NCBI GenBank assembly: GCA_951406725.2
Contig: OX597815.1
Span: 6,820,001 to 6,884,000, forward strand
Direction of reading: 5' to 3'
From: Octopus vulgaris
Taxonomy: Eukaryota
Length of the DNA stretch: 64,000 nt
The position numbers and the translations under genes were made by a program. The notes beneath the pieces are model-generated. The model made no database searches. It had not been told where the DNA came from and saw only the letters and a program-made list of their open reading frames with translations. This document shows, one piece after another, positions 8,746 through 63,440 of the stretch (within the stretch, counting starts at the first letter, position 1; the number at the start of each line of letters is the position of its first letter).

Positions 8746-9359
8746 AGAATTTGGAGAGGTTAAGACAACTCTGAGAATGGTTGACAGGATCACGATCAGT
8801 CGATCTGTTTGGCAAGATAATCAGTGAGTGTGCATATATGGTAGTGAGTCAGGTTGGTTGGTTGGTTGGGAGGGGAAGAATTTTGGAAGAGTTTTATGTT
8901 TATGTTTGTTGATTGGAAGCGAAACACACAACAGAAGCAACCTCTTCAGCAGCAGGTCTGTTACTTACAGAGCCATCTTCATTGGGAAGTGGTAGGCAGG
9001 AAATTCTGCAAAGTTAGTAGAGATCCTCTTGGCAATGATGCAGAAAAACAAGCTGCAATTTAGGATGTGTGAGTGTGTGTATGAGAGAGAGAGAAAGAGA
9101 GAGACAGACAGAGAGAAAGCTTAGTCTGTATGATACATGAAATCATTGCTGTTTTATTGATGGTTGTTTTGGATGCCATGAAGTTGGTAAATGCTTCTGG
9201 CCTTTAAGAATGAGCCGTTTTGAATAATCCTGTTACTTTCCATCCTGGATCCTGTCCATTCTACACAGCTGAAATTAAAAGAAATTGAATTCACTCTGGC
9301 GAGTCTGTTCTCTTAAGGAAGATCGTGATGTTTAGCCTTAGGTCAGCCCTGAACAAGTA

Positions 9360-9940
9360 GAACAAATACTATGCCTACGCAGACTCACTGAAGAATCAAA
9401 AGCATTTAATCACAATCTTGCAATGGTGTTTGTAGGCTTTTCTAAAGCGTTCGACTCTGTAGATAGGTACAAGATGTTTGAAATCCTTAAGCTCTATGGG
9501 ATTCCAGACAAAATCATCTCTGCCATCAAGGTCCTCTACACAGATACGTCTTCAACCATCTTAACACTTGATGGGGAAACATCATCTTTCTCAATCAAAG
9601 CCGGAATACTGCAGGGAGACACACTCACCCCATTTCTCTTCATCATTGTCGTTGACTATGTGCTACATATGTCAGTTGATACCATTTCTGGCAAGGGCTT
9701 TGAAATAAAGCCTAGAAGAAGTTCCAGACACCCAGCTGAGTACTTGACAGACACTGACTTTGCTGACGGCATCGCTCTTATCAATGATTCTCTCTCCAAT
9801 GCCCAGTCTCTTTTACAAGCCTCAAATTGGGTAGGTCTTTACCTCAATGAGTCCAAGACTGAATATGTAAACAAGTGCCTGTCCAACAGTGATTGCATCA
9901 TCCATTCTCTCAACAATACGCTCTTAAATAAAACAGATAA
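9360..9940 (+). mobile_element. LINE (RTE-like) reverse-transcriptase fragment
   Basis: FSKAFDSVDR..GILQGDTLTPFLF..DFADGIAL. Confidence 0.85.
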
Positions 9941-9984
9941 ACCATCAGATGATCCGTCACCAAACCTCGTATTTTATGATGATA

Positions 9985-10700
9985 CTAGATGTACCTGCCA
10001 TGACCCGTTGGATCACAACCACTCCAAGTTGAAATTGTCGATGTGCAGCAGGAAAGGAAACAAAACACTACTTCGAACTTTATGCAATAAAATTCTTTGC
10101 TGTGACACCATAAACATGACCAAGTGCTTCTTCGTTGAAAATGTTCAAATAGCCTTCAACTTTTTTCCTCGCTTTCTTCTTTGCCATTCTTTGTTGCTGC
10201 TGTTCCAAGTGAAATACACAGGTACTTCAGCATAAAGTAATGTCTTTGCAAAGTCATTATTGATGCACAATGAAAAGAATTCTGTCAATGTTGTTCTCAT
10301 CTGTTGTTCATTGACAGCCATATATATCCCCATAATTTCTGAGCAATAATCTTTATTCGTCTGGAAGATGAACTTGTAGTCTCACTATTGCAGGTGCTCT
10401 TTGATGAATTGAAAATCCTAAAATGGATGTAACTGCTTCGAATGGTCCAGTATACCTAGCCATTAGATACTGACTAATTTGGTTATCGTTGTTTATTTGA
10501 ACAGCTGCTTGGTCATTTCCTTTCAGTGTGTACTTGATGGCATACTTAACTGACCTCACTGAGGCAATGATTTCAATGTTGCAGTGGCATTTGAATGCTC
10601 TTAAAAGAGTTTCTTTATAAGGTGCAACCCATTTGTTGTTTGTTTTTCCAATCTTATGAGATTCAACTCCCTCCATTGCAACTGGTTGTCGTCTATAAAG
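9985..10700 (-). mobile_element. Decayed Helitron Rep/helicase fragment with 3' terminus
   Basis: HCNIEIIASVRSVKYAIKYTLKG..ARY..EA..ILGFSIHQRAPAIVRLQVHLP and TTLTEFF..LLYAEVPVYFTW. 3' hairpin tgatccaacgggtca followed by CTAG at 9985. Confidence 0.85.
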
Positions 10701-10816: not shown

Positions 10817-11056
10817 TTGCAGCGTGGAAGAAACATACAAAAGCCGTTCGATTCACTCAACATTTAAGTTTAATTTGTCAAAAATATTTTCGTCGCTAAA
10901 ATCTGCGACCTGTTCAGCACAGATTTTTGTCAGTGAACAGGTCGCGGATTTTTGCGCCGAAAATATTTTGACAAATTAAACTTAAATGTTGAAGTGAATC
11001 GAACGGCTTTTGTGTGTTTCTTAAATGGCTTACAAACACCTTCCACGCTGCAATTG
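10817..11056. repeat. Fold-back repeat; same family at about 62634-62882
   Basis: ttgcagcgtggaag...aacatttaagtttaatttgtcaaaaatatttt is mirrored on the other arm. Confidence 0.8.
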
Positions 11057-11760
11057 ATTAATATTTTATTTTAAATAAAATAGTAATTTTCCCTTTTAAG
11101 AAAAAAAAAATCAAGTACCCATGATTTAAAAATATAAAAATATAGGGAGAATTTTTCTTTCAAGTCCACAGCTCTCCAAATGATTGAGGAAAGAAATAAA
11201 GGACAGACAGCAGTAGCTGACATGACCCTTCAAAGTGTCGACATTTTCAGCTTGATTTTTTCTTATTCTTAAAGAGGGAAAATGACTATTTCATTCGTAA
11301 TCTTTAACATCTTAATCAAATGGCAGGAAAACAAACTTTGAGTTTTAGCATGATATAGATAGAAGATAAATGGAGTGTCTTGGACTACATTATTCAATGA
11401 ATTTGAGAAAGGTTTGATTGCTTTTTCTAGCGGCTAGAGCAATCATGTTGATGTCCTCTTTTTTATACGTCCTTGAGAGGATCTTTTTATCTGTCCCCAA
11501 TCTATTTCTTGTTTTCTGACGGACATAAATGAGAAAATTGTAGCCAAATTCTTTCAAATCACACAGGCAGAACTGTTAGCACGTCGGACAAAATACTTAG
11601 TAGTATTTTGTCCGTTTTTACATTCTGAGTTCAAATACTACCGAGGTCGACTTTGCCTTTGAGAGTCGATAACCAGTTGAGTACTGGAGTTGATGTAATC
11701 TTCCCCGAAATTGGTGACCTTCTACCAAAATTTGGAACACATTGGACAGTGCAGTTTACT

Positions 11761-12170
11761 CTTTACTCTTTTACTCTTTTACTTGTTTCAGTCATTTGAC
11801 TGCGGCCATGCTGGAGCACCGCCTTTATTTGAGCAAATCGACCACGGGACTTATTCTTTGTAAGCCCAGTACTTATTCTATCGGTCTCTTTTTGCCGAAC
11901 CGCTAAGTGACGGGGACGTAAACACACCAGCATCGGTTGTCAAGCAATGCTAGGGGGACAAACACAGACACACAAACATACATATATATATATATATACA
12001 CATATACGACAGGCTTCTTTCAGTTTCTGTCTACCAAATCCACTCACAAGGCATTGGTCGGCCCAGGGCTATAGCAGAAGGCACTTGCCCAAGATGCCAC
12101 GCAGTGGGACTGAACCCGGAACCATGTGGTTGGTTAGCAAGCTACTTACCACACAGCCACTCCTGCGCCT
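11761..12170 (-). mobile_element. Young tRNA-derived SINE (family A). Other copies start at about 6069, 12607 (truncated), 24711, 28034, 28499, 31727, 38676, 40629, 42390, 43317, 50980, 57993 and 60641
   Basis: Head aggcgcaggagtggctgtgtggtaag..ggttcagtccc, internal (TA/TG)n, tail (gagtaaaa)n; copies are near-identical. Confidence 0.9.
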
Positions 12171-12191
12171 ATTTGGGATAAAATTAATAAA

Positions 12192-19700: not shown

Positions 19701-22664
19701 AACGTTTTCTTTCCATGCTGGCATGGGTTGGATGGTTTGAGTGAGGACTGGCAAGTCAGTAAGCTGCACCAGGCTCCAATCTGATCTGGCAAGGTTTCTA
19801 CAGCTGGTTGCCCTTCCAACCATTCTGAGAGTGTAGTGGGTGCTTTTAATGTGCCACCGGCATGGGGGCACCGACCAGCACTGGCATCAACCACACTCGA
19901 ATGGTGCTTTTTACATGCCACTAGCATGGGAGCCAGAAGTAGTTTTAGAACTGGGAACTTCTATATTTTCATGGGTTGGTTTTCATTAAAGAATCTGTCA
20001 AAGAATTATGGGACAAGTTCCAAATCTGGAAGAGTGGTGAAGAATTAGCAACAAAAAGCCTGAACAATCTAGGCAGTAGCCTTGCTCAATACTTGGAAGA
20101 AATCCACTCGGAAACTTTATATTGTGTATTTGGAAGAAATAGTGGGTGCTCAAAAGTTGTGATGGGCTGGCAGATACAGAGAGAGAAACCAGGAATGTAA
20201 ATGAACAGGAATGCTGAGCATTGCGGATACTCCCAAAAATAAAGATCAAGAATTGTCCAGATGGAAGATATTCAGAGAGTAGGCTGATCAAAATGTAAAA
20301 TGGAACTATACCAAGTGTGGTATATATATATATATATATATATGTAATCAAAAATAAGCAACAAGAATGAATTCGGTAATTTAGTACAATTGTTTCATAC
20401 TACAACATTTTATTAAAGGCTGTAAATATTACAGCAGATTTAAGCTAATTTTATATAGGTTTTCCAATAATATAAAGTTCTCAGATCAATTAATAACATC
20501 TTAGGGAAGGTAAATATACAGATAAAGATGTAGATATGAATCTCAGGAACATGAGGTAGTGTAGTTAGGATGCCAACCTGACCAAAACTTTGCTCACAAC
20601 TGACTGTTGTTAGAAAATTTCCCTAGTTATAAGAATGGGGGTAAGGGCAGGTTAAGAAATCAAGTTAGTCAAGCTAGAAGAAAAGAAGGGGAAAAAATTC
20701 AGGAGATGTAAAAGACTAACAGATTGTCACTAGAACAAAGGGTCAATCTATTTATGTGGTGACAAAAGATTTAGGTCAGTGTAGAAGAAACACTAAATTC
20801 TTAGGAGACTATGAGGTAGGAGGTCAGCTACTAAACTGACCAACCCTTACTTTCATCTGAAAGCCATCAGAATTTTTAGTAAGAATTTAGGTAAGGGGAT
20901 GTGAAAAAAAGCTGTAAAAGGGGTTTAAGTTAGAGAAAATACATGAAAGGAATTCAAGGTTATCACTAGAGTATATATATATTTACTCATTCCTTCTATC
21001 ATAAAATGAAATGGTTTAGGTTTTGTTTAAAATAAGTTTATAGGTTAATAATTATATTAATTGAAAATATTTGACTTATATTTACTATACAAAATGGCCA
21101 CCCTTTGCTTTCACCGTAGCCCTTCATCTTTTCTCAGCTGAAGTGCAGGACATTGGGGGAAATATATATATCCAAACGTCATTGATTCCAGGCCCACCTG
21201 ACTGGCTCCTGTGCTGGTGGCACTTAAAAATCACTCACTACACTCTCAGAGTGGTTGGCATTACGAAGGGCATCCAGCTGTAGAAACATTGCCAGATCAG
21301 ATTGGAGCCTGGTGCTGCCACTGGCTTTCCAGACCTCTTTCAAACTGTCCAACCCATGCCAGCATGGAAAAACGGACGTTAAATGATGACGATGATGATG
21401 ATGTTGCACCCAGTTGTAGATGAGGTTAACAATATAGAAATCTTTAACTCCATGTTTTCATCATTGTTTTTATACTTTTCCAACCTTATATGGGTTGACA
21501 GAATTCATTGAGAGATTTCTATGGCTGGATGCCATTCTTATCACCAGTCTTCATTTATTCTCAAGTAAGGTAATATTTTCCCTAGTCCAAGCATGTTTCC
21601 ACAGAAAACTGGAAGCGAATAACATTACTTGTATAATGGTGGCACTCACTTGCAACTGTCACATAATGTCAAGACATTGAACATCCAGCAGAGCATGCTG
21701 GCCTCATTCCTCCCTAGCCTTTGCATGTCCTCTGCATTTAGGCCCATATTTCTCAACCATGTAGAATTGCTGTTTGTATGCATGCATCATATGGTCTTCC
21801 TTTCACTAGAGAATAAGTATGTATTTATATGTGTATATATACATATATGTGTGTATGTACAATATTTACATTTGACGGATATTTGTCCTCATCTTGTTTG
21901 TTGTCAACACAGCGTTTCAGCTGATATACCCTCTAGCCTTCATCAGGTGTCTTGGGGAAATTTCGAACCTGGGTTCTCATTCCTAAGGTATTTTTCAATG
22001 TTATTATTATTCAGATCACTGCCTGGAATCGAACTTTGAATCTTGTGGTTAGTAGCCCACGCTCTTAACCACTATGCCATATGCCTGTGGTTTTTTTCTT
22101 CTTCAGAGCTTTCTAGATGTCGGCTACTTACATTAACTACTGCTTTCACAGGTGGGTGACAGACTTTAGTCTTCATTCGCTGACCTTTGAGTTTCATAAG
22201 CTTCATAATCTGGTGTGTCTTCACTATTTCAAATAATAACATCGAAAAATACCTTAGGAATGAGAACCCAGGTTCAAAATTTCCCCAAGACACCTGATGA
22301 AGGCTGGAGAGTATATCAGCCGAAACGTGTTAACAACAAACAAGATGAGGACAAATATCCGTCAAAAGTAAATAATTCCACATCTCTTAGACATCGGACT
22401 GTATGTGTATACATATGTACATAGTCTGTATATATATATTGATTAAACCTCGCCAAGTTAAATATTTAAACCACCTGAAGAATGACTGTAACTCGAAATT
22501 TTAAGAATTAGACAGCCATGAAACAATCGTAGTGTTATATTAATTATCTTTTTTAATAATTTTGATATATATTTAAATAATATAAATTAATTAATCTTAT
22601 GTATTGGCTTAAGTTTTTCATTGTATGATTTGCCTAATAGTGGTTTTATCTCTAATTTAATATA

Positions 22665-25600: not shown

Positions 25601-28600
25601 ACATTCCTAGATGCAGGTGTGGGCTTGGATCAGTCTCACTACATGTTACCTTGGGCAGGTGTCATCTACTCTAGCCAAAGCCTTATGAGAGGATTTGGTA
25701 CAGGGAAACTGAAAGAAGCCTATCATGCATATCCTTACTTTGACATCCTGTGATAATTAGAAATGAGAATCACCAACATACGAGGGACGTTGTGCCTTTC
25801 TTGTCTTCCATGGTGAAATATTACCTGGCTTGGAAACAAGTGAGTGTTGGCAACAGGAAGGGAATCCAGCTGTAAAAATCTACATCAGCAAATTCCATCT
25901 AACCCATGCAGACATGGGAAAATGGATGTTGAATGATGGTGATTGTTCTGTATGCTGGTATGACATTTCTAGTTATTAGATACAATTTAGGCCCTGTATG
26001 TTTAGAAATGCATGGCATACTCTAATGGGTTAAAATATGAGCTTGTAGTTGCTAAAGACAGGTTAAAGATAATATTACATCATCCCTTCTCCAATGTCAA
26101 TTGAACAAGAATGAATTTATTTTTAAAGGCTTAATCACAGGAGGAAGGGAGGTGCTTGCAGGCTGAGATTTCTGGGAGGAAATTATCCCTAAACTGGTGA
26201 CTCTGCCCAAATGTTACTAAAGACACCCAAGGCCCAGATGGTGGTTTTGTTAAACTAGCTCCTGCAATTAAGTCTCCTCCCATCTAAGAATTAAAAAAAC
26301 AAAACAAAAAAACCCCAGCAAAAATATGTAAAAAGAAGAAAAAAAGAATATATATTGCAAAGCAATTTTGAAAATATTGTTCATTCTCAGTATCTCCAAC
26401 AAGCTAGTTCATGCTGTCAGCAACTCTAGTGTTTGTTCTGTGACTCACAGACACACTCTGCTGCTGGGTGCTTTTTTTCTAGTCTCATATTTCATGTCAT
26501 CCTTGCATAAAATAGTTGAAGTGGATTCATTAGTCTGTCTGTTGTACAAAGAATCTGTTGATGTTGAATTAGACGGAGAAGGGTGTCGAGTTACACAAAA
26601 GTTAGGAATACAAAGAATTTTTATAAATTTTTGTTCAGTAAAATATACACAAAAGTTTTTCCTAATGCCATCCTCTTGTCTAAAATGTGAGTTACCATAT
26701 AGCAAGAAACCTGTTCCGCTCTGGCCCATCCCCTCGTAATTTAGCCTCTCATCTCCTTGCATAAAGACACCTCTCTCAAAGTATGTGGTGTTGCAAGCTG
26801 CATGGTAACCCCACTAATGCTGGTGGCACAAAGGGGGGGGGGAGACCACCTAGTAAACATTGTAAAGTGGTTGGCATTAAGAAGGACCCATCTAGCTGTA
26901 GAAGCTGAAGTGTAAAGGGCTTCAAGGAAGTCTCTTACCCTTCTTAGCAAACAACTCCGAAAAAGATACCCTCTACCCTACCCGTTGGTCTGTAGATAGA
27001 ATACTCCAGGACTCATACTTGTGCACATCTGTTCCCAGTGACTGCCTATGCAAAAAAAGGTTTGGAGTAAAGATAATTTGCAAACATAACATGGCAGTCC
27101 TGGTTTAGGACTGATGTTGCTGTAATTTAGCCCCAGGACACATCGTCTCCAGCTGGCTATATGACATGATCTGTGTTCTTATATTTTCAAACAAAAAAAG
27201 AAAAATAAGGACACAGATTGTGTCATATAGCCAGCTGGAGACAATGTCTCTTGGGGCTAAATTACAGCAACATTCATCCTAAACTAGGACTGCCATGTTA
27301 TGTTGACAAACAATCTTTATTCCAAAGTACTGTTACTGAATATCCCTCGTTGTGAGATTTAAAAATAGTAATTTTCTAAAGAAAGTTTTGCTCAAATCAC
27401 CTGTTTTGTCAGGTGGTGCATTGTGTCTTTGAGCAAGACACTTTATTTCATGTTGCTCCAGTCTGCTCAGCTGGCAAAAATGAGTTGTACATGAAATTCA
27501 AAGGGCCAGCCTTGTCACATACAGTATTATGTTGAATAATCATCATCATCATCGTTTAATGTCCATTTTCCATGCTGGCATGGGTTGGATGGTTTAACTG
27601 AAGTCTGGTAAAGCCAGTGGCTGCACCAGGCTCCAATTTGATCTGGCAATGTTTCTACAGCTGGCTGCCCTTCCTGCCTTGCCCAAGGACACAACACACC
27701 ACCTAGGCCAGAAATTGAATTCATGAACTTATGGCTATGAGCCCAGCACTTTAATCAATGTGATATTAGTTGAATAAGTTTTTCTGTAGTTGATGTTTAG
27801 CCCCAGGTCAGCCTTGACCACCTAGGCTATGACCAAAGCTGTTCCTGCTGTAACTATCCCGTCTTTTATTTTCAGACACAGTTTATCAAGGACTGCATTG
27901 GCCAAATGCAGATGGTTGTGTGTGATTTGGGGGAAATTTGGCTACTATTTCTACCAGGTCAAGCAACCAAGCAGAGGCTTTTTTGTAGACTTGTTCTTTA
28001 GTTGCATGTCAATTTTGTCATTAAGCAGTCATCTCTTTACTCTTTTACTTGTTTCAGTCATTTGACTGCGGCCATGCTGGAGCACCGCCTTTAAGTCGAG
28101 CAAATCGACTCTAGGACTTATTCTTTGTAAGCCTAGTACTTATTCTATCGGTCTCTTTTGCCGTACCGCTAAGTTGTAGCGACGTAAACACACCAGCATC
28201 AGTTGTCAAGCGATGGGGGGAAGAAACAGACACACAAGCATACATATACATATATATGACGGACTTCTTTCAGTTTCCGTCTACCAGATTCACTCACAAG
28301 GCTTTGGTCGGCCCGAGGCTATAGTAGAAGACACTTGCCCAAGGTGCCACGCAGTGGAACTGAACCCAGAACCATGTGTTTGGTAAACAGGCTACTTACC
28401 ACACAGCCACTCCTACGCCTATTTTTATGCTGTGACTTTTTTCTTTTTTTTTTCTGTCAGACAGGTAGGCAGAGGGTAACATGCATACTCTCTCTCTCTC
28501 TTTTACTCTTTTACTTGTTTCAGTCATTTGAATGCAGCCATGCTGGAGCACCGCCTTTAGTCGAGCAAATCGACCCCGGGACTTATTCTTTGTAAGCCTA

Positions 28601-31600
28601 GTACTTATTCTATCGGTCTCTTTTGCTGAACCGCTAAGTGACGGGGACGTAAACACACCAGCATCGGTTGTCAAGCAATGCTAGGGGGGACAAACATATA
28701 CACACACACACATATTTATATATATACATATATACGACAGGCTTCTTTCAGTTTCCGTCTACCAAATCCACTCACAAGGCTTTGGTCGGCCCGAGGCTAT
28801 AGTAGAAGACACTTGCCCAAGGTGCCACGCAGTGGGACTGAACCCAGAACCATGTGGTTGGTAAACAAGCTACTTACCACACAGCCACTCCTACGCCTAT
28901 TTTTATGCTGTGATTTTTTCTTTTTTTTTTTTTTTCTGTCAGACAGGTAGGCAGAGGGTAACACGCATGAAGACTTTTCATAAACAACCTTCTATATATA
29001 TATTTATTGCAGAATCTCATGAACACAATAAACAAAGGAAATTTGTTGACGAAAATGACAAACAGTTTGAAGAAAAGACAAACGGATCCTTAAGCTGCCA
29101 GGTCTCCTACATGTCCCTGGATGTTTTGGCTCAAGTTGCAGCTGATAAGTTACGAGATGATGAAAAATTACGACAGAAATCAACATCTAAAAAGGTTTCT
29201 AATTTGATTTTATTTATTTGTGAAGTGATTTCAATTAGGAGGAGGACCAGAGGGGGCTCCTGGCCCTCACAGACTCTCTGAGACTAGTTTGATTGTTGTG
29301 ATTTAATGATTTTAACCCTTGAGTATTTAAACCGGCCATATCCGGCCAAAATAATTAATCTGTTTTATGTTCAAACTGACCGGATCCAGGCTCTCGCACC
29401 TACCCTACAATGTTATTCTACATTAAGTAATTACACCATCAAGCTCTTGAAGATATGAGATAATGCGTGATTAATTGAAATCAATGGGAATCAATAGGTA
29501 TTATGTTTGGTTGAATAATCTGAACACTAAAGGGTTAATGTTGTTTGATGAGACTGGTTTTAGTTCTTCTATATTTTGACTGAACATAAATGTAAAAAAA
29601 AAACTATAAATTGTCAAAAAAACACAAAAGGCAGCTGAATGAATTGCATTTCTTATATTATTTAAGCACCCACTGCACTCTCAGAGTGGTTGGCATTAGG
29701 AAGGGCATCCAGCTGTAGAAACTCTGCCAGTAACTGGCTTCCGTGCCGGTGGCATGTAAAAGGCACCATTCGAGTGTGATCGTTACTAGCATCGCCTTAC
29801 TGGCACCTGTGTCGGTGGCATGTGTAAAAAGATTTGAGCAAGGTCGTCGCCAGTACCGCCTGACTGGCCCCTGTGACGGTGGCACATAAAAGCACACAAT
29901 CCACTCTCGGAGTGGTTGGCATTAGGAAGGGCATCCAGCTGTAGAAACTCTGCCAGATCAAGATTGAAGCCTGGTGCAGCCATCAGGTTCGCCAGCCCTC
30001 AGTCAAAATTGTCCAACCCATGCTAGCATGGAAAGCGGATGTTAAATGATGATGATGATGATTTACATTTGATGGATATTTGTCCTCATCTTGTTTGTTG
30101 TTAACACAACATTTCAGCTGATGTACTCTCCAGCCTTCATCAGGTGTCCTGGGGGAATTTCAAACCTGTGTTCGACAAACATCCATCAGACGTAAATAAT
30201 GTACATAATTCCTCATCTCTCAAATATCGAACTGAATTGTAATTTGTGTTAAGGAAATAGGATAACAGGCTGGTGGAATAGTTAGCACACCAGACAAAGT
30301 GCTTAGCAGCATTTCCTCTGTCTTTATGTTCTGAGTTCAAATTCTGACACAGACTGCTTTTCCTTTCGTCCTTTCGGGATCAATAAGATATGCTCCAGTT
30401 GAGCTCTGGGGTCAATGTAACCAACCCCTCCTTCGTAATTGCTGGCCTTGTGCCAGAATTTGAAACTGATATGTGTCAAGGAAATAGATACTATCATGAT
30501 CATCATTTACAGCCTGCATTCCATGCTGCCATGGGCTGGATGCTTGACAGGATTCGACTAGCTTAAGGGCTGCTTTGGTCTCTGGTGGTGTCTGCTTTGG
30601 CAGCTGAATGTCTTTCTCATGCTTACCACTTTACAGAGTGTACTGGGTGCTTTTTTTTTGTGTGGTGACTTGGGAGACAAAACCTCAACTGAGTGAAGGT
30701 TGCTGTATTTGGAGAGGTAGCTTTGAGCCAGGCTTAGAAAGGTTAAAGTAGGAAAGAGAGGCAGGAATAAGTGTTTTGCTGTAGAGGAGATGTATAACTA
30801 CACCATATATCTCTTCAATGCTGTGTGTGTGTACGAGATCATAGTCATGGCTGATGCAAGTCTAGCATAACTGGCCTGTTTAAAAGTACCCTTCAATTGT
30901 CGGGTAATATGCTATGCATAAGATCTGTTGAGTCAAGTGATGTCGTGGCCGATGCCAGTGCAGCCTGACTGGCACCTGTGCCAGTTGCACGTAAAAGATA
31001 CCAGTTGAGCGTGGTCGATGCCAGTGCCACCTGACTGGCTCCTGTGTTGGTGGCACGTGAAAAACACCATTTGAGTGTGGTCGATTCCAATGCTGCCTGA
31101 CTGGCTCTTATGCTGGTGGCACGAAAAAAGCACCCACTACACTCTTGGAATGGTTGGCTTAGGAAAGGTATCCAGCTGTAGAAACCTTGCCAGATGAGAC
31201 TGGACCCTGGTGTAGCCTCCTAGTTTGCCAGTCCTCAATCACTCCAACCCATGCCTGCATGAAAATCAGATGTTAAACAATGGTGATGATGAATTGAAAG
31301 ATCGGCTGTGTATTACAAAAGAAATATGGTAACAGAACGGTTAAAGCTCTTTAGTAAAGAATTATTTCATTTCAATAAATGTTTAAAATCTCTATTTTTC
31401 TCATTTTCCTTCCACAGATTTCAAAACGCAGCATTCAGTGCCTTGATATTTTAAACCTTGAGCAAATCCAATCACTCTCAGATAAAACCTTGCTTAATCT
31501 CTTCTCCGAAATCACATGCAACGAGATGACTCGGAACTTTACATATCAGTGTTATTTAATACCAGAAAAGTGCCAAGAAAAATTTACGAGTTTTGGAAAT

Positions 31601-34600
31601 GAAACGAAAGCAAAAATGCACATGAAACAACATTTAATCAACCATATCGACCAGCTAGTGTACGAAGCAAATGGTATGATAAATTTCTTGATAAATTTGG
31701 ATTTTATTTATGTTTTGACTCTCTCTCTTTACTCTTTTACTTGTTTCAGTCATTTGACTGCGGCCATGCTGGAGCACCACCTTTAGTCGAGCAAATCGAC
31801 CCCGGGACTTATTCTTTGTAAGCCCAGTACTTATTCTATCGGTCTCTTTTACCGAACCGCTAAGTGACGGGGACGTAAACACACCAGCATCGGTTGTCAA
31901 GCAATGCTAGGGGGACAAACACAGACACACAAACATATACACACACACTTATATATATATACATATATACGACAGGCTTCTTTCAGTTTCCGTCTACCAA
32001 ATCCACTCACAAGGCATTGGTCGGCCCGGGGCTATAGCAGAAGACACTTGCCCAAGATGTCACACAGTGGGACTGAACCCGGAACCATGTGGTTGGTTAG
32101 CAAGCTACTTACCACACATCCACTCCTGCGCCTATATGACTGTTTCATATCAGTAATTCAGTTTTTATCATCATAAGTTTTGTTTTCAAGAATTAAATAG
32201 CATTAATTTAGCTCTATTTTAGAATATTGAGCACATGGTGTAGACATGGCTGTGTGGTTAAGAGGTTCAGTTACCAACCACATGATTTTAGGTTCAGTCC
32301 CCTTTGGGATTTTGTGGCGCCTTAGGCAGATGTCTTTTGTTATTATTCCAGGTCAACCAAATCCTTGTGAATGGTGCTGGTGAATGGAAACCGCATGATG
32401 CCTAGTATGTGTGTGTGTGTGTTTGTGTGTCCTTATTTTGTCATTGCACCATAGTTGTAAACAAATATCACTGTTGTACATTCTGTGTCATTTATTTGCA
32501 ATCTTCAGTGAAAACATGTCCAGCCATTGTGCTGTTTGCGCATAAAGGACCAAGAGAAATATTGCCTTGCTTGGAAACAAGTGAGAGTTGACTACCTGAA
32601 GGGCATCATCATCATCATCATCATCGTTTAATGTCCATTTCCCATGCTAGCATGGGTTGGACGAGGAGGCTGCACCAGGCTCCAGTCTGATCTGGCAGTG
32701 TTTCTACAGCTGGATGCCTTTCCTAGCGCCAACCACTCCGTGAGTGTAGTGGGTGCTTTTTATGTGCCAGAGGAGACTGGCAGTGGCCACAATCAGTTGG
32801 TGCTTTTTACTTGCCATAAAACATCTACCTCACCTGGCCATAAAACATCTACCTCAATGAATTTCGCCTGACCCATGGACATTAAAATTGAGGAGGAGGA
32901 AATTAAATATACTGCAATTCAAGCTTGATGAAAGAAACTGCTTTTAAATATTTTCCATTTGTTTTATTTTTAAACTTACAGATCCAGAAAGGAAATACCG
33001 ATTTATATTTACTGCTGAACCAGTTCATGTCCGGAAAAGGAAATTATCTGGTAAAGTTACAGTTTAATTTCTGATGAAATATATTCTCAAAAAGGCGGTG
33101 AGCTGGCAGAAACGCTAGCATGCCAAGCGAAATGCTTAGCGGTATTTTGTCTGTCGTTACGTTGTGAGTTCAAATTCCGCCGAGGTCGACTTTGCCTTTC
33201 ATCCTTTCGGGGTCGATAAATTAAGTACCAGTTTCGCACTGGGGTCGATGTAATCGACTTAATCCCTTTGTCTGTCCTTGTTTGTCCGATCATCATCATC
33301 GTTTAGCGTCTGCTTTCCATGCTAGCATGGGTTGGACAATATGTCCCCTCTATGTTTAACCTCTTGTGGGTAGTAAAGAAATATATATTCTCAAATTATA
33401 TTTTCTTCTACAGTGAATTCCTGTGGCCTTGTGGTTAGGGTGTTGCACTTACGATCGCTTGGTCATGTGTTCAGTTTCTGAACTGATCCACATGTGTTCT
33501 TGAGCAGATCATTTCATTTCATGTTGCTCCAGTCTATTCAGAAGTAAATGGGTTCCCCTGTGATGGACAGGTTTTCCTGTCAGTGGAAATGTTGATCCAC
33601 TTGCCTAGCCACTGGGGTGGGATGTGGGGGTGTTGTCTGAAAGCTAAAATGATGCAAAGTATAACGACATCCACAATCATCATCATCCTCAACACCGTAA
33701 CCCTTATCATCATCGTCACTGCCATAACATCATCACTGTTATATCACCACTATCATCATCAGTCATAACATCACCACCATCATCACCACCACCATCATCA
33801 TCATCACCACCATCATCATCATCACCACCACCATCATCATCACTACCACCACCATCATCATCACTACCACCATCATCATCATCACCACCACCATCATCAT
33901 CACCACCACCATCATCATCACCACCACCATCATCATCACCACCACCACCATCATCATCACTACCACCATCATCATCACAACCACCACCATCATCATCACT
34001 ACCACCACCATCATCATCACTACCACCACCATCATCATCACCACCACCATCATCATCATCACCACCACCACCATCATCATCATCACCACCACCACCATCA
34101 TCACCACCACCACCATCATCACCACCACCACCATCATCACCACCACCATCACAGTCATCACCATCACTATTGTCACCATCACTGCCATCACCCCCACCAC
34201 CATCGTTCTACTAAAGTATTTTTATGTGTTCCAGTTATTGTAAGTGTATGAGAATTAATGCAGTATTTTTTTTTAATCTTTTTTAATTAACAGAAGAAAA
34301 AGCTAAAAAGAAGAGATCAACAAACTATGTGAATTGCAATCCTCTCAACGGGAGTAACATCAACTGCAGCAAGAACATTAAAACTTTCACGAATCTAAAA
34401 GCAACCAAAGAAATTAGTCGAGAAAACAAGATGCCAACCCCGAAGAGGAATGCTGTTGATATGAACGGACCAGTGAGGTCGACAAGAAAAAATAATCTGT
34501 CTGAGAGAGAGATAAAACAATCAAACGAGACTGTAAAAAATGTTAGTTCTCCCAAAAAAGTTATGGCACAGCATAACCTTAACAAAGAAACAAAACTTAA

Positions 34601-37600
34601 AAAGTCCCCTAAATGTAAAACCAAAAGGGTTTCTTCCAAATCTGTTCTTTTAGCGAATGAAGATGAATTAAAATTTGTAAGCCCGCAAGTTGTAGACGAA
34701 GCAGCTAAAAATGAGGAAGGAAACGGTGCTTCTAGAAAAGACATTGTCAAGAAGGTTGACCGAAATAATGAAGAATTTATTTTAGATTTGTTAAAGAATA
34801 CTCACCCACACCACGATCATTGTTACACGACGACATCTGGTAAGAAATGTCTCGTTGAGACATGTTCTGTCTATTCGGACAATGAAGAGGACAATTCCAG
34901 CAATCACTCAGCAGACGTAGATGACAGTTCTACATTGGATAGCAGACCATTATTGCCAATATTGGAATTAGATTTTTGCAGTGAAGATATACCTTCAGTG
35001 GCCTCTGAAGAGATTGTGGACAGTTCGTTGTTGACAGAAGATGAGGACTCTTTGGGTCATTGCGGACATAGTATGTTGTTTGTTTTTATCTTTTTTCTTT
35101 GTATCTTTTATCTATTATCTGTTTTAGTCATTGAACTGTGGTCATGCTGGGGCACTACCTTGAACAAACAACACCAGTAAATATTTTTAAAGTTTGGCAT
35201 TTATTTTCAATCAGCCTCTTTTGCTGAACTGCTAAGTTAAGGGGGATGTAAACAAACCAACACCAATCACCAAGTGGTGTGTGGGGACAAAGACACACAC
35301 ATACATATGATTGGTTTCCACAGTGTTGTTCATAAAGCATTGGTTGGCCTGGGGCCATAGTAGAAGACACTTGCCCAAAGTGCCATGCAGTGGGATGGAA
35401 CCCAAAGCCATATGGTTGCAAAGTGAGATTCTTAACCACTCAGCCATGCTTGAATCTGTAATTTTATAGAAATTCGACAAAATATGTTGAATTGGGAAGA
35501 TTTCAGTTTTTTTATTGTTATCAACTGAATTCAAATTTGCAGTTAATTTCATAAAAGTAATCTTGTGATATTCATCATCATCGTTTAACGTCCGCTTTCC
35601 ATGCTAGCATGGGTTGGACGGTTCAACTGGGGTCTGGGAAGCCCGAAGGCTGCACCAGGCCAGTCAGATGTGGCAGTGTTTCTACAGCTGGATGCCCTTC
35701 CTAACGCCAACCACTCCGAGAGTGTAGTGGGTGATTTTATGTGCCACCGACACAGGTGCCAGACGAGGCTGGCAGACGGCCACGCTCGGATGGTGTTTTT
35801 TATGTGCCACCGACACAGGTGCCAGACGAGGCTGGCAGACGGCCACGCTCGGATGGTGTTTTTTATGTGCCACCGACACAGGTGCCAGACGAGGCTGGCA
35901 GACGGCCACGCTCGGATGGTGTTTTTTATGTGCCACCGACACAGGTGCCAGACGAGGCTGGCAGACGGCCACGCTCGGATGGTGTTTTTTATGTGCCACC
36001 GACACAGGTGCCAGACGAGGCTGGCAGACGGCCACGCTCGGATGGTGTTTTTTATGTGCCACCGACACAGGTGCCAGACGAGGCTGGCAGACGGCCACGC
36101 TCGGATGGTGTTTTCTTATGTGTCACCGACACAGGTGCTAGACGAGGCTGGCGGACGGCCACGCTCGGATGGTGTTTGTTACGTGCCCTCAGCACGGAGG
36201 CCAGTCATTGCGGTACTGGCTACGGTCCCGTTCGGATGGTTTTCTTATGTGCCACCGGCACTGGTACCACAAGGATACAAATTCCATTGATGTTCATCTA
36301 TTTTGATTTGGTTCGATTTGATTTGATACGATTCGATTCTCACTTGCCTCAACAGGTCTTCACAAGTGTCACAAGAAGGAAGGTATGCACAGGTGGACTG
36401 ACTACGTCCCAGGTAGGGGCCACGGATTATGGCTTCACTAGTCTTGCCGGGTCTTCTCACGCACAGCATACTTCCATAGGTCTCGGTCTCTAGTCATTTC
36501 CATGGTGAGACCTAACGTCCGAAGGTCGTGCTTCACCACCTCGTCCCAGGTTTTCCTGGGTCTACCTCTTCCACGGGTTCCCTCAACTGCTAGGGATTGG
36601 CACTTTCTCACACACCTCTCTTCATCCATTCTCGCCACATGACCATACCAGCGCAATCGTCTCTCTTGCACACAACAACTGATGCTTCTTAGGTACAACA
36701 TTTCTCTCAAGGTACTAACGCTCTGTCGAGTAAGTACACTGACATTACACATCCATCGGAGCATACTGGCTTCGTTCCTCACGAGCTTACGCATGTCCTC
36801 AGCAGTCACGGCCCATATTGTAAAGTATATCTGCCACCTAAATGTGGCAGTCCCATAGAGAACAATGCTACTGTTGTTTATAACCTCAGGAAGGCATCTC
36901 TTCCAACTAGCTAACGACACACTGCCTCATCATCATTATTTAACGTCCGTTCTCCATGCTAGCATGGGTTGGACGGTTCGACCGGGGATCTGGGAAGCCA
37001 AGAGGCTGCACCAGGCTCCAGTCTTATCTGGCACTGTTTCTACAGCTGGATGCCCTTCCTAACGCCAACCACTCCGTGAGTGTAGTACACTCCGTGAGTG
37101 TAGCTAGAAGCACTGTCTGTGTCTGATTAATATTTGTGAAGAGAAATCATCATTCTCATCTCAAGCCTTACTAGGTGGCAAATATACTTCACGGTTCCAT
37201 GCTGCTACTGTTTACTTCTCGCTCAGAGATTTAATTTTGTGATATTAACCAAATCCAAAAACGAAATGTACTAAAAACGAAAATCAAATAAATACTTGGC
37301 TTCTTAAATTTCTGTGAAAATGTGGAGAAAAATGAGAAAATATAGATTTTACGCATATATAATATAATTTGGTGCCACATAAAAAGCACCGATAACACTC
37401 TGTAAAGTGGTTGAAGTTAGGAATGGCACCCAGCTGCAGAAACCTTACTGAAACAGACCAAGGAACCTGGTGTAGCCCTCTGGCTTGCCAGCTCCTGTCA
37501 AACAATCCAAACCATGCCAGCGTGGAAAACGGATATTAAATGATGATAGTAATATTCATCATCATCATCATGACCATCATTTAATGTCCGTTGTCCATGC

Positions 37601-37786: not shown

Positions 37787-40700
37787 CATCTTCATCGTTA
37801 TCATTTTTCATGTTCACTTTGTTTGTATTCAGAACCGTATCCCCCTATGCCAAAATCAGCTTTAGCCAAAAAAGGAAAACTACAGGTGCCAGAAGAAAAC
37901 GAATCCCTTAGTGAAGGAGAAGCTGTGGAATATAATACCCCTTGCCCTAAGAAGAAGAAGAAAGATTTTGAGAAGAATACAGCTGCTGAATTAGAAAGGG
38001 TAAGTGTTTATAGAGTTTGATTTATAAAATTCTGATGTTACGAAGAGCATTGAGCCATAGAAACCATGCCAAAACAGACAATTGGTGCCTGGTTAGTTAC
38101 TTAGTTAGTTAATTATTTGGCTCAAAAAGCAAAAAGTAAGGCCATGTAGGGGGACATGAAGTTATGTACAGGGTGGTGTTCATGTAAAGCGTTCAGGCCA
38201 CTTGAGGTCAAGGGAGACTTTGAACCGAGCGGTTGTCGGCATCATCACCATCTCGTCTGGCAGCTTATTCCACGGATCCGCCTGGTGTAGCTCTCCAGCT
38301 TGCCATTTTCTGTCAAACTGTCCAACCCATGCCAGCATGGAAAATGGACATTAACTGATGATGATGATGATGGTGTTTCTTGAAGTAATAATAATAAAAG
38401 TAGAGATGAGAAATGGCATTATTCATTCCCTTTGGTATAGTTCATGAGTGATATTGAGATAAAACCAGTGGGTGGTGAACTCAGTAGGGCTCTTGGCAAA
38501 ATGTAGAGCTCATAGTTACATTCTTGTATGTTGTGAGTTCAAATCCCACTGATGCTGAGTTTGTCTTGCATCCACCCCCTGGGGTGGGGGAGGTTGATGA
38601 AATAAGTAACAGTTATATATTGGAGACAGGTAAATCAACATAGCCACCTCTCTCCCTCTGTCTAAATCTTATACTCTCTTTTACTCTTTACTCTTTTACT
38701 TGTTTTAGTCATTTGACTGCGGCCATGCTGGAGCACCACCTTTAGTCGAGCAAATCGACCCCGGGACTTATTCTTTGTAAGCCCAGTACTTATTCTATCG
38801 GTCTCTTTTGCCGAACCGCTAAGTGACGGCGACGTAAACGCACCAGCATTGGTTGTCAAGCAATGCTAGGGGGACAAACACAGACACACAAACATATACA
38901 CACACACTTATATATATATACATATATACGACGGGCTTCTTTCAGTTTCCGTCTACCAAATCCACTCACAAGGCATTGGTTGGCCCGGGGCTATAGCAGA
39001 AGACACTTGCCCAAGATGCCACGCAGTGGGACTGAACCCAGAACCATGTGGTTGGTTAGCAAGCTACTTACCACACAGCCACTCCTGCGCCTATGTCAAT
39101 GATAAAAATTAATATTTAGATAAGTTTGTGTATTTTCATGTATTTTAATCTGATATAGTGCCCTGTTATGACTGGAAGTGTGAGGGGCTTCCGTTTTAAA
39201 CTGGGACCAGGAGAGACATGTTGGCATATGCCAACAACATTATTGTCATTGTGTTGGACATCACAGAAGTGGGCATCATCATCATCATCATCGTTTAATG
39301 TCCGTTTTCCATGCTGGCACAGGTTGGACGGTTTGATTGAGGTCTGGGAAGCCGGGAGGCTGCACCAGGCTCAAATCTGATCTGGCAGTGTTTCTACAGC
39401 TGGATGCCCTTCCTAACTCCAACCACTCCGAGAGTGTAGTGAGGGCATTTTGTGTGCCACCAGTATGGGAGCCAGTCAGGCGGGCCTGGCATTGATCACA
39501 TTCGGATGGTGCTTTTTATGTGCCACTGGCACTGGGGCCAGTCAGGTGGTACTGGCATCAGCCATGTTTGGATGGTGCTTTTTACGTGCCACCAGCACTG
39601 ACACTATTCTAAATCAATATGAGACGGTGGCAGGAGTCAAGATCAATGCAGACAGCTTGATGGTGTTGCCACTGGACACATGAAGAGGCTGCTCAATGTT
39701 GTTCAACAATGTTTATAGCATGTTGGATTGATGGACCAGTTAAACTGCTCAGGGTCTGGTTCACTTGCAACAAATACATGTGGACTGGACCTAGGATGAG
39801 GTGACAAACAGGGTGGCTAGTCCTGTCCAGAAATTGGTTGATTGACGGCTACCTCAGAAAGGCTGGGCAGAGAAGGCAAATACCTACGTCACTTCTTCTG
39901 ATATCAATTTCTGCTGAGATTGACTTTGTCTTTCATCCTTTTGGGGGTCAATGTCATCAATGAGCTCCTTCCCCTCAAAATTTCAGGCCTTGTTTCTATA
40001 GTAGAAAGGATTATTATCATTGTTATTATTATTATTAAGGTAGCAAACTTGGCAGAACAATAAGCATACTGGATGAAATGCTTGGCGGTATTTCGCCCAT
40101 CGCTGCGTTCTTAGTTCAAATTCTGCCAAGGTCAACTTTGCCTTTCATCCTTTCAGGGTCGATAAATTAAGTGCTAGTTAAGCACTGGGGTTGATGTAAT
40201 CAACTAGTCCCCTTGCCCCAAATTTCAGGCTTTGTGCCTATAGTAGAAAATATTATTATTATTATTATTACTCTTTTTTTTTCTTTTCTTATATATTGAA
40301 GAAAACGGCATTACGTTGCATCAGGGAATTGAAAGGCCGCAAGAAAGATGATAAAATTGCTCTTGCTTGTCAAATTTGTCTCGACAAGACCTTCACAGCC
40401 AGTGCAACTCTGATGTATCACTATCGTAGCCATGCTGGTAAGTATCTCAAAATTGTCTTTGATCCTTTCATTCTTATCATCAGAACAATTATTGGTGGTA
40501 TAGGTTCTAATATTTGGCAACAAGCTTTTAGCTTTCCATAAATTTGTTTTGATATGGTCTTTCTTCTCTCTTAGAGATTTGCAAGTAACTGTCATATTTT
40601 CAAGTGCGCAAGTCTGTGTAGTATATACTCTTCTTTTACTTGTTTCAGTCATTTGACTGTGGCCATGCTGGAGCATCACCTTTAGTCAAATCAACCTCAG

Positions 40701-59800: not shown

Positions 59801-60412
59801 TTTTCGGTGTATTTCAACCAGAAAAATGTTCACTTAAAGAGAATAACAAGCTACATAATGCAAAATTTTTACTTTTCAAAAATTTCCAATTCTAAAGAGT
59901 CGAAACAAACCCGAGCAATGCCGGGCGATACTGCTAGTGAATAAATAAAATTTGAGGGTTAACTTACTTGGAATGTCGGCTTCTGGCCAGACCAAGATAA
60001 GGGGCACAAAAACGCCATGGTCTAAACCACGACCACGCACCTGTCTGCATGATATACCGTGTGTCTTGAATAATTCGGTGACACGGGCAGCCACAGCCGG
60101 AGCTCCTTTTGCAGGCCATTTCAGGTCATACATGCTCTTAGGGAATCCGTAATAATCAAAGAACAAGGAATGGTTTGGGTCGTCCATGACGCATGGGACA
60201 TTCTCTTCCCAGTGGGCGCTGACAACTAGGATCGCCTCTGGCCGTTTGTTCAGGTGAGTTCGTGTTAGATTTTGCAGGAATTTCGCTGCCTCTGAGTCCC
60301 GATCCATTCCACGCATATCTGGATATTCCTTGACATCCATGAAGAACGAAGGCCCACCTCCATGCGATAAGAAAATAACAGGCTGTACACGATCGTTCGA
60401 GTGACCCGACAT
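56858..60412 (-). CDS. 4,5-DOPA dioxygenase-like extradiol ring-cleavage dioxygenase (LigB/DODA/YgiD family), 285 aa; join(complement(59968..60412),complement(56858..57270))
   Basis: Family motifs SHGGGP, SAHW, FDYYGFP, RGLDHG, PEADIP-TFQVSL, GSGFMTH and HPRIEHFLPL. Phase-1 intron A|GTAAGT ... ttcAG|CA joins to 858 nt. Confidence 0.92.
57442..57747 (-). mobile_element. Non-autonomous Helitron
   Basis: Same 3' hairpin + CTAG; 5' TCTTTATATAT. Confidence 0.8.
58807..59051. mobile_element. GC-rich MITE with a 9-bp TSD (Merlin- or Mutator-like)
   Basis: TIR gtactacttgagaacagtggtcccggtgcgcgcac; TSD AAGATATGG on both sides. Confidence 0.85.
59244..59420 (-). pseudogene. Degenerate duplicate of the 3' half of dioxygenase exon 1, inside the intron
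   Basis: YGFPKG..PAGRAPVAAVRISKLFKTHD vs YGFPKS..PAKGAPAVAARVTELFKTHG. Ends GACATTCCCT|GTAAAT, compared with GACATTCCAA|GTAAGT in the real exon. Contains frameshifts. Confidence 0.8.
59541..59937 (+). mobile_element. Non-autonomous Helitron (near-identical to 12192-12588), in the dioxygenase intron
   Basis: Same termini and body as 12192-12588. Confidence 0.85.
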
Positions 60413-60864
60413 AATTCTATTTCAATATTTGCTGCGAGAATCGAGCTGACAACTTCCAACTCACTTCCACTCTTCCTCTCTTTCACCCACTCTATCTATT
60501 GATCGCTTTCTTTTCTCCATGTCTCACCTGTATTATTATTCCTTCTCTCTCTCACTCTCTTTCTTTAACCTTCACTCATTAATGGATCTTGTTAAATTTC
60601 TTCTCAAATTTTTACCAATTTTTTTTTTTTAATTTCGACATTACTCTTTTACTCGTTTCAGTCGTTTGACTGCGGCCATGCTGGAGCACCGCCTTTAATC
60701 GAGCAACTCGACCCCGGGACTTATTCTTTGTAAGCCCAGTACTTATCCTATCGGTCTCTTTTGCCGAACCGCTAAGTGACGGGGACATAAACACACCAGC
60801 ATCGGTTGTCAAGCAATGCTAGGGGGACAAACAGACACACAAACACACACACACATACATATAC

Positions 60865-60899
<35 letters not shown>

Positions 60900-62633
60900 C
60901 ATATATACGACGGGCTTCTTTCAGTTTCAGTTTGGTCAGCCCGGGGCTATAGTAGAAGACACTTGCCCAAGGTGCCACGCAGTGGGACTGAACCCAGAAC
61001 CACTCCTGCACCTACATTGTGTAACTTTTTTTTATTGTACTTTATACGCACCTTTGACAAGTTGTGATGTACCTGAGGACTGCATACAACAAATTCATTA
61101 TTATTATTATTATTATTTAATTTCTAGTGGAAGTGGGGCGGGATGAATGCAAGTTTCGTCTCCAGCTTTCAAAACTACATTTAAAAAATTATTCTAGAGA
61201 AAATACTTGAAATTTAACAATATCCATTGTTGTATCTGTTTCGTATATAATTGGTGCCAATTAAAATTAACCCATAAGAACAGTAATGCACACTTGATAA
61301 ATTAATTAAACTATGATGCCGAGAAATGACAACATTAATATACAATAATAACCTTATCTTCACTACAGAATGCAGCAAAAACAACCCATCAGTTTCACCG
61401 ATCTTGATAAACGTTTCAAGAAGAAACGTACAGAATACATCAGTGCAAATAACGATAGTAACAAAAGGGGAAAAACACGATAAAACATTAAACTACATAA
61501 AGACACCATCGCTGCCTGTTTGAATTTTGTTAGTGTCACATCAATAGCCACGAGAAATAAGGGTTTTCTGTCTCATCTGCAATAACAATGTTGTTAAACA
61601 TCTGTTTATTCGTTTCCTTCATCCAGGATAGCCAGATTATTTATTTCTGTATATATCTCGTTACTGTTGGTTTCATTCTAATTAACGACGCTATAATCAA
61701 TGATTACCTCTTCTTTTTTTCCCTTCAACTTTCATCTGTCCACTTTGAATTTATCTCATTACACTGGTCAACAAAATACAACTTTCATTTTCTGGCATAA
61801 AATCTTAGAGTTGTACTAGACTTGTGTGTGTTTATGAGCGAAACACCTAAGCTCCATGCGGCTCCGGCAGAAGGTAATGGCGAACTTCTGCTGACTCTTT
61901 CGCCACAACTTTCTCTCACCCTTTCCTCCTGCATCTTGCAGCTCACCTGTGACGGACCGGCGTCCCGTCCAGGTGGGGAACCTATACACCAAGGAAACCG
62001 GGAAACTGGCCCTTATGAGCCAAGCATGGCTCAAGAAGGAACAAGCAACTGTTCCTTCTAAAGGATGAAACAATAAGATGACCAGAATGAATGACCACGT
62101 GCTGGTGGCACGTAAAAAGCACCATCCGAACGTGGCCAATGCCAGCGCCGCCTTGACTGGCGTCCGTGTCGGTGACACGCAAAAAGCACCAACCGATCGT
62201 GGCCGTTGCCAGCCTCCCCCGTGCCGGTGGCACGTAAAAAGCACCCACTACACTCACGGAGTGGTTGGTGTTAGGAAGGGCATCCAGCTGTAGAAACATT
62301 GCCAGATTAGACTGGAGCCTTGTGCAGCCTCCCGGCTTCCCAGACCCCGGTCGAACCGTCCAATCCATGCCAGCATGGAAAACGGACTTTAAACATGATG
62401 ATGATGATTTTGTTATCACCAAGCTTAATTCTTACATGCTAATGTGCATTTTTTACTCCCATAGCTTTGTGTTTTGATTTATTAGATTAAAAAATGACAT
62501 ACTGTCTATTAAAAATTGCATCTACGTATGTTTAATTCTTCCATTATCTCAAAAATCTGATGTGATAGACAAAATCTGATGCCAGATTTAAGATTCAGCA
62601 CCCAAAAATTAGCTAAAAACCATTGATAAATAA

Positions 62634-62882
62634 ATTGCAGTGTGGAAGGTGTTTATAAGCCATTTAAAAACATGCAAAAACCGTTAGATTCACTTCAACA
62701 TTTAAATTTAATTTGTGTCTCAAAACGACGAAAATATTTTGACACAAATTAAATTTAAATGTTGAAGTGAATCTAACGGTTTTTGTGTTTTTAAATGGCT
62801 TACAAACACCTTCCACGCTGCAATTGTTTTCGTTCCAGCACACGATCTCAGATCAGGTCACATGCTATGCAAGTACATCTCC
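62634..62882. repeat. Fold-back repeat, same family as 10757-11056
   Basis: Inverted arms; shares gcacacgatctcagatca...gctatgcaagtacatctcc with the 10.8 kb copy. Confidence 0.78.
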
Positions 62883-63165
62883 ATCGATAAATCTTGTGCC
62901 AGAAAATGTGATGACCAGCATTATCATATCAGCTCCATTTTCACCACAGACACAGAGTTGTATATGCCACAATTTGGCATTCTTTCGATATTGGTACACA
63001 AAACAATTCACCCATACAGGACACAAAAGGGGCTTAGCTGAAAAGGTCGGTGAATGAGGTCTTCCCCTCCTCACACTTTGCAGACCAATGCCAAAGGAAT
63101 GCCCTCTATTATTTAGATTTGGGGAAATTTCGAACCTGAGTTCTCATTCCTAAGGTATTTTTTTA

Positions 63166-63205
<40 letters not shown>

Positions 63206-63440
63206 ACATATGGCGTAGTGGTTAAGAGCACAGGCTACTAACCCCAAGATTCCAAGTTCGATTCCAGGCAGTGAACTGAATAATAATAGTAACATCGAAA
63301 AATACCTTAGGAATGAGAACCCAGGTTCGAAATTTCCCCAAGACACCTGAAGAAGGCTGGAGGGTATATCAGCCGAAACGTTAACAACAAAGATGAGGAC
63401 AAATATCTGTCGAGTGTAAATAATGTACATAATTCCTCAT
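63206..63440 (+). mobile_element. tRNA-headed SINE-like element carrying a hammerhead core
   Basis: A box TGGCGTAGTGG (63211), B box GTTCGATTCC (63256), then acac-CTGAAGA-aggctgg..cagcc-GAAA-cgtt. A partial inverted copy lies at about 63120-63165. Confidence 0.7.

Follow-up and report, generated by a model that had tools for sequence, protein, structure and literature searches.

A SINE-like repeat of Octopus vulgaris with a tRNA-derived head and a predicted hammerhead ribozyme is the pseudo-LTR of an autonomous Penelope-like element

The 64,000-nucleotide stretch of Octopus vulgaris DNA analysed here (the window) holds copies of a short repeat in which a tRNA-like head with the A and B boxes of an RNA polymerase III (Pol III) promoter precedes a hammerhead motif. 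The features are listed below in terms of the pseudo-LTR (pLTR) of a Penelope-like element, an identity for which we argue further on.

63119–63181, minus strand: inverted partial pLTR arm, from the linker to just before the hammerhead (92% to 63279–63341).
63203–63280, plus strand: tRNA-derived pLTR head, from the sequence (aligns best with host tRNA-Arg(TCG) and tRNA-Thr, scoring 38 where the maximum for shuffles is 24.7 ± 3.0).
63281–63293, plus strand: (AAT)n linker of variable length, from the sequence.
63313–63440, plus strand: decayed 5' end of the ORF of a Penelope-like element; its first ATG in frame is at 63313 and it ends inside the tail region (the segment continues in frame into the RT ORF in L231, L260/L317, L270 and L272; tblastn to P0003).
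63342–63382, plus strand: minimal type-I hammerhead motif inside the ORF, 3' strand of stem I deleted (sequence; per-column counts in ~270 copies).
21854–22087, minus strand: tailless pLTR that retains the head, with a mutated ribozyme (88% to the 63-kb copy).
22098–22224, minus strand: fragment from the N-terminal part of the element's ORF, immediately contiguous with the head (blastn match to the natural N-terminal region; tblastn match to P0003 weak at E 0.055; sequence).
22232–22404, plus strand: headless inverted arm with tail, same insertion as 21854–22087 (sequence comparison).
30058–30173, minus strand: pLTR arm truncated at its 5' end, lacking both head and tail and with a mutated ribozyme (81% to the 63-kb copy).
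30174–30237, plus strand: short, tailed arm in inverted orientation, immediately next to the 30058–30173 arm (sequence comparison).

In the 63-kb copy the A box (63211–63221), the B box (63256–63265) and the hammerhead core CUGANGA (63347–63353, i.e. 82 nt past the B box) lie where the original prediction had placed them, together with stem II (63355–63359/63370–63374) and the GAAA-CG-UU stretch (63375–63382). The extent assigned to the element, 63120–63440, includes all of these motifs but stops approximately 30 nt short of the true end, the missing part being a 'tail'. The four copies counted in the window are real and 81–91% identical to each other; they represent, however, three insertions, with 21854–22087 and 22232–22404 forming the two arms of one of them, and only two of the four (at 63 kb and 21 kb) possess a head. 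Self-comparison of the window locates an inverted arm at every locus, as had been proposed. An intact ribozyme is found in none of the four copies: the 63-kb copy is devoid of the 3' strand of stem I, the 21-kb copy has lost U16.1 and one stem II pair, the 22-kb copy has no cleavage triplet and the 30-kb copy is changed at C15.2 and C11.1.

The surroundings contain several unrelated features. A 181-aa open frame (59879–60421, minus strand) that matches Pfam LigB (ring-opening dioxygenase, E 2.2e-18) is probably a host gene, located ~2.7 kb from the 63-kb insertion. Two related, palindromic and MITE-like repeats of ~195 bp occupy 62633–62825, only 300 bp from the 63-kb element, and 10828–11022, and a near-perfect palindrome of 453 bp (98.7% self-complementary) lies at 1725–2177. 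A separate, abundant family of ~400-bp repeats is represented at 11755–12175, 28485–28900, 31718–32135, 38673–39094 and other positions. On the plus strand we also noted an RT fragment of another family (9342–10232, RVT_1 E 7.9e-10) and a 297-aa open frame with no Pfam match (34287–35177).

The head aligns best with host tRNA-Arg(TCG) and tRNA-Thr, with scores of 38–46 against a shuffled maximum of ~25 ± 3, which upholds the proposed tRNA derivation; single shuffles reached 34–40, making the margin a modest one, and the parent tRNA is uncertain in a comparison that covered 30 host tRNA loci of few isotypes. Rfam and ARAGORN do not recognise so degenerate a head: the latter called no tRNA in the window or in 60 of 80 control loci scanned, and Rfam returned no hammerhead or tRNA match in the window or in a full copy, only microsatellite look-alikes. 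Of the 21 related elements in which a hammerhead follows the ORF (48 loci examined), not one has a B box before that hammerhead, in a scan that recovered the B box in 7 and the A box in 13 of 15 of the element's own copies.

A 32-letter hammerhead descriptor finds 2,544 exact matches in the host genome and its reversed control none, and the motif read from the window is thus a genuine one. The conserved core, stems I and II and a palindromic stem III, as expected of a minimal type-I hammerhead, occur family-wide, and within the core it is position 7 that shows a common non-CpG variant (A in 20%). Judged by these features the predicted ribozyme would belong to the minimal, dimer-dependent Penelope type, whose members are reported to cleave weakly and only as dimers (PMC4209133; PMC6765202); in the predicted monomer fold stems I and II are kept and part of the core is paired. 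A genome search with Rfam Hammerhead_1 returned six loci, all of other families. Such other hammerhead families in the same genome comprise L062, L063 and L066; L064; L065; and L061, one of these families having a long stem II insert.

The identity of the repeat emerges from its flanks. Using a Penelope-type RT fragment adjoining one copy as query, we searched the host assembly (2.80 Gb, 227 contigs), scored 150 matches and cut out 30 loci. In 23 of these 30, which were chosen by RT protein alone, the head is located at a fixed distance downstream, ~35–40 nt past the stop codon of the GIY-YIG endonuclease; the other seven are rearranged or broken off before the spacer ends. Over all loci examined, the head follows the endonuclease stop codon or ORF end in 90 of the 92 copies that reach the end of the spacer. 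One of the two exceptions shows the first letters of the head and then jumps to the body, the other has neither head nor body, and 16 further ORF-end matches, which are outside the 92, stop before the spacer end.

On its other side the body of the repeat codes for the N-terminus of the ORF, and the pLTR continues into the ORF in L231, L248, L260, L270 and L272. The tail region passes into the N-terminal region in L231 and L248, L260/L317 and L272 start at the head and proceed into the ORF, and L270 displays the succession ORF end, pLTR and ORF start. In L231, L260/L317, L270 and L272 the hammerhead-bearing segment is in frame with the RT ORF; the start codon, an ATG, precedes the ribozyme, and the frame then passes through the latter. 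L317 translates through the ribozyme and shares 47% identity with residues 18–330 of the 847-aa homolog P0003 (E 7.5e-89), whose own N-terminus matches the ribozyme-encoded peptide. The order of the unit is hence head, (AAT)n, ATG, hammerhead within the first codons, RT, GIY-YIG endonuclease, stop codon, a spacer of ~35–40 nt and the next head. Since the head trails the ORF end, the repeat continues into the RT ORF and the frame traverses the ribozyme, the ~265-bp SINE-like unit is the whole pLTR of an autonomous Penelope-like element encoding RT and GIY-YIG, and no separate SINE.

That a tRNA pseudogene and a ribozyme-like motif have come to lie next to each other by chance in a few copies might seem suggested by the lack of a head in two of the four window copies. 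The headless copies are 5'-truncated arms, however, and the link between head and body, rather than being confined to the window, recurs across many chromosomes and at almost every ORF end that reaches the spacer; this vanishingly improbable explanation is refuted.

No single unbroken full-length ORF was found among the copies examined. The natural ORF of L097 spans 569 aa, with RVT_1 below the cut-off (E 2.7e-06) and GIY-YIG uncalled, and a PDB sequence search yielded weak RT matches only. The ORF has 2,980 homologs, of which P0001 and P0002 are 60–68% identical, and among the 27 that were aligned the profiles call RVT_1 in 26 and GIY-YIG in four. Several hallmarks of EN+ Penelope-like elements are present: an RT with a C-terminal GIY-YIG in one ORF, pLTRs in tandem as well as inverted arrangement (direct pLTR–ORF and ORF–pLTR–ORF junctions; inverted arms), a hammerhead motif in the pLTR and a one-sided tail. 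In translations read by eye the CCHH motif is present and the CX2-5CxxC linker before the endonuclease is absent, features that serve to delimit Penelope/Poseidon (PMC8557442). By its domain order and the missing zinc-finger linker, a criterion-based placement, the element would belong with the Penelope/Poseidon clade. Many copies (L258, L261, L264, L265, L268, L274, L275, L278 and L284–L286) jump from ~200–260 nt inside the ORF back to the pLTR, partly at short shared sequence, which results in internally deleted units of ~500–700 bp.

The insertions themselves show an inverted arm and target duplications of 8–15 bp, and just one of their arms carries a tail; Penelope-like insertions are described as carrying an inverted truncated copy on their 5' side and a tail of 30–40 bp at one end (PMC8557442). 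In 72 inverted pairs the tail is found on exactly one arm in 55, on both in none and on neither in three, the remaining 14 being unclassifiable; the 3' ends cluster at reference positions 233–239 and 264–267, ~30 nt apart. Target duplications of at least 8 nt accompany 35 of 85 insertions compared to 1.9% of 1,056 mismatched pairs. With these footprints, and with head and body making up the pLTR of an autonomous element, the suspected mobilisation by Penelope machinery is supported.

We also considered the ribozyme cut as the 5' boundary of the copies and rejected it, as the start of only one among 351 arms coincides precisely with the cut and the number rises mildly over the next 14 nt. The lack of a pile-up of copy starts at the predicted cut is in line with the Penelope-like element PAc, for which cleavage is reported to be unnecessary in vitro and no reads end at the site (PMC11167929). 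The 5' ends instead gather at the head. Among 69 head-bearing arms, taken from four copy sets not selected on the head and including arms of one insertion, which are not independent, 44 begin at head positions 1–11, 20 inside the head and five reach further, into the ORF side; when 40 arms were aligned more finely, 21 started at +1 to +10, nine of which were scored non-inverted. This distribution suggests starts at the head as Pol III transcripts would give. A short palindrome spans the first base of the head and coincides with many inverted junctions, and fold-back priming at this palindrome could cause part of the pile-up.

The main rival to a working Pol III promoter regards the head as a passive tRNA or SINE fragment that was captured once in the spacer, with transcription carried out by Pol II from a pLTR promoter or by host read-through, as in Drosophila Penelope; in D. 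virilis the Penelope promoter is described as TATA-less, LINE-like and internal (PMC2377424). The 5' pile-up would then be due to RT pausing or fold-back at the palindrome or the head structure. Copies that are not inverted nevertheless start at the head too (e.g. L162, L171, L308, L317 and L322), and we consider a passive head unlikely, although it is the most serious competitor.

A run of TTTT (T4) is a terminator for Pol III, and a test was fixed in advance according to which a unit read in its entirety by Pol III has a sense strand without TTTT. Over the ~2.6 kb of sense strand no TTTT is shared by the copies: in 191 ORF and 393 pLTR matches, scored on a 2,353-nt ORF reference (coverage at least 30) plus the pLTR, T4 occurs in at most 9% of the covering copies at any site and 13 T3 sites are shared. 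Five long natural copies hold 1, 0, 1, 0 and 3 T4 runs where 3.9–5.4 are expected. As controls we used 80 related metagenome elements, in which the median ratio of observed to expected T4 is 1.43. The 57 controls of similar T content have a median of 3.29 T4 per kb, with one short element having none, and a hand count of the 25 that measure at least 1.9 kb found zero T4 in none of them and only one T4 in the ORF in two. Of 16 long ORFs from other retroelements of the same genome, many of which belong to one family, 13 contain 3.0–7.2 T4 per kb and three 0.8–1.4.

If the head were a passenger, the lack of TTTT would have to be compositional luck or have another cause. Consistent with this, a codon-preserving shuffle gives a moderate result, with 25 T4 in 39 non-independent ORFs where 49.9 would be expected and only one ORF reaching p<0.05, and G4 runs are likewise absent (0 against 2.5–2.8 expected). 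Avoidance of the TTT codon ranks 4 of 78. Other observations are harder to reconcile with luck: T3 runs are at expectation while T4 is missing, which amounts to a threshold effect; the 77 frequent non-CpG variants of the ORF suggest several source lineages, none of which has a common T4; and 16 of 21 related elements have at least one T4 between ORF end and ribozyme. Overall the scarcity of T4 lies at the extreme of the controls, with an empirical tail of a few percent, and is suggestive.

Transcript data are uninformative about the promoter. From one study (organism label B), three raw RNA-seq runs, each sampled to ~6%, map to the element equally in both directions and without a meaningful pile-up of ends. 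In a search of sequencing runs, contig sets under five organism labels contained 0.60–0.72 of the words searched and no RNA set was listed. From the head into the ORF end the depth in run X21 amounts to 1185, 839, 556, 613 and 301, a gradual profile with no step, in keeping with a passive head. Such a pattern is compatible with read-through of embedded copies, and it counts mildly against an abrupt step at the head in that organism.

The pLTRs are abundant. A locus is present in 19 of 92 regions sampled at fixed positions on contigs C1–C19 (917 kb), from which we estimate ~58,000 loci genome-wide, with a wide error. The copies deviate from the commonest letter per column by ~6%, and the family is therefore old. 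Only three of the 19 randomly sampled loci include ORF sequence, the copies start at the head and the solo pLTRs behave like SINEs; on these grounds one could still argue for the separate non-autonomous lineage of the original prediction, i.e. a tRNA head and a Penelope-type ribozyme tail that borrow Penelope enzymes in the manner of SM-alpha/Sj-alpha. The A and B boxes of a tRNA-derived head do conform to SINE2, but an independent lineage of this kind has a head that its partner element lacks, and here the autonomous element itself bears it, with the body in frame with the RT ORF. Over 239 columns no letter separates 37 ORF-linked from 76 solo copies, and even in the ten most different columns the commonest letter is the same in both sets; the differences reflect greater decay in the ORF-linked set, the solo set being biased toward less decayed copies. 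Tandem multimers of the short unit were not seen among the sampled loci. A SINE lineage of its own is thus very improbable and already largely refuted.

Returning to the head as a functional promoter, we regard initiation by Pol III at the head as fairly probable, whereas the idea that Pol III reads through the entire coding unit is put forward only tentatively. According to this scheme, a 3' or solo pLTR would give rise to a short RNA that is copied back by the element's own RT and endonuclease, and in this way tens of thousands of SINE-like copies could have accumulated. From an upstream pLTR the transcript might run through the entire TTTT-free unit into the next pLTR, and the read-through RNA would bring together two minimal hammerheads, the arrangement predicted to be necessary for dimer cleavage. 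A transcript composed of head, ORF and next pLTR and processed by the hammerhead dimer may serve as the RT template and perhaps as an uncapped mRNA; cleavage, if any, does not determine where the inserted DNA begins or stops. Seen as a whole, the element would be an autonomous protein-coding retrotransposon in which a captured tRNA-type Pol III promoter has replaced the Pol II one and terminators have been purged from the 2.6-kb unit, a possibility that we entertain with some doubt.

By definition SINEs are Pol III passengers of autonomous elements that are transcribed by Pol II. Here head and enzyme are combined in one unit with a SINE-like terminal repeat, a direct path by which an autonomous element can give rise to a SINE-like family, and tens of thousands of loci that annotators could label as tRNA-SINEs are in fact Penelope termini. 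The lack of TTTT hints that a protein-coding transposon is transcribed in a manner for which we found no description. Pol III RNAs are uncapped and the head includes a two-codon upstream ORF, making translation a problem; if Pol III does transcribe the whole unit, one has to ask how an RNA that is uncapped and bears a ribozyme can be translated, and the element would provide a compact system for testing the Penelope cycle, which is poorly understood.

Our literature search found no tRNA-headed or Pol III-driven autonomous Penelope-like element, and the family may stand in Repbase or Dfam under a Penelope or SINE label. The accessible portions of cephalopod repeat papers make no mention of a tRNA-headed Penelope structure, nor, in the case of PMC13282606, of ribozymes; for the giant squid 235 hammerheads were counted (PMC6962438). 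With the EN+ Penelope-like elements as described (PAc of Anolis, PMC11167929; PMC8557442; D. virilis Penelope, PMC2377424) the octopus element shares a single ORF for RT and C-terminal GIY-YIG, pLTRs and an inverted 5' arm, as well as a one-sided tail of 30–40 bp, a hammerhead over the ORF start and the absence of read or copy ends at the cut (PMC11167929; PMC8557442). It differs from them in the tRNA-derived A/B-box head that opens the pLTR, their described promoters being TATA-less, LINE-like or overlapping a spliceosomal intron (PMC11167929; PMC8557442; PMC2377424), and in a sense strand without the T4 runs that most of the 80 relatives carry. The predicted ribozyme resembles the minimal metazoan Penelope-like hammerheads (Cervera and de la Pena 2014, PMC4209133) in being of type I, with an extra nucleotide before stem II, G10.1-C11.1, a palindromic 15.2–16.2 without loop III and a 5-bp stem I; we see no essential difference from their published description apart from the Pol III-type head that precedes it.

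Animal non-LTR retrozymes (bioRxiv 10.64898/2026.07.22.740005) are likewise non-coding derivatives that carry a hammerhead and are related to pLTRs, but they are tandem repeats, and the available part of that paper mentions neither tRNA, Pol III, octopus nor cephalopods. The nearest parallels are the schistosome SM-alpha/Sj-alpha elements and the LTRs headed by small RNAs of the Cassandra type. The former have a Pol III-type promoter followed by a hammerhead in short dispersed copies, but are described as non-coding and multimeric (PMC6765202), whereas the octopus ribozyme region is protein-coding, lies in an autonomous element and was not seen in short tandem multimers. Cassandra, Helenus and Ajax likewise harbour a small-RNA-derived Pol III promoter in their terminal repeat (Kojima 2024, PMC10886601); they are non-autonomous LTR elements, in contrast to the octopus element, which is an autonomous Penelope-like one.
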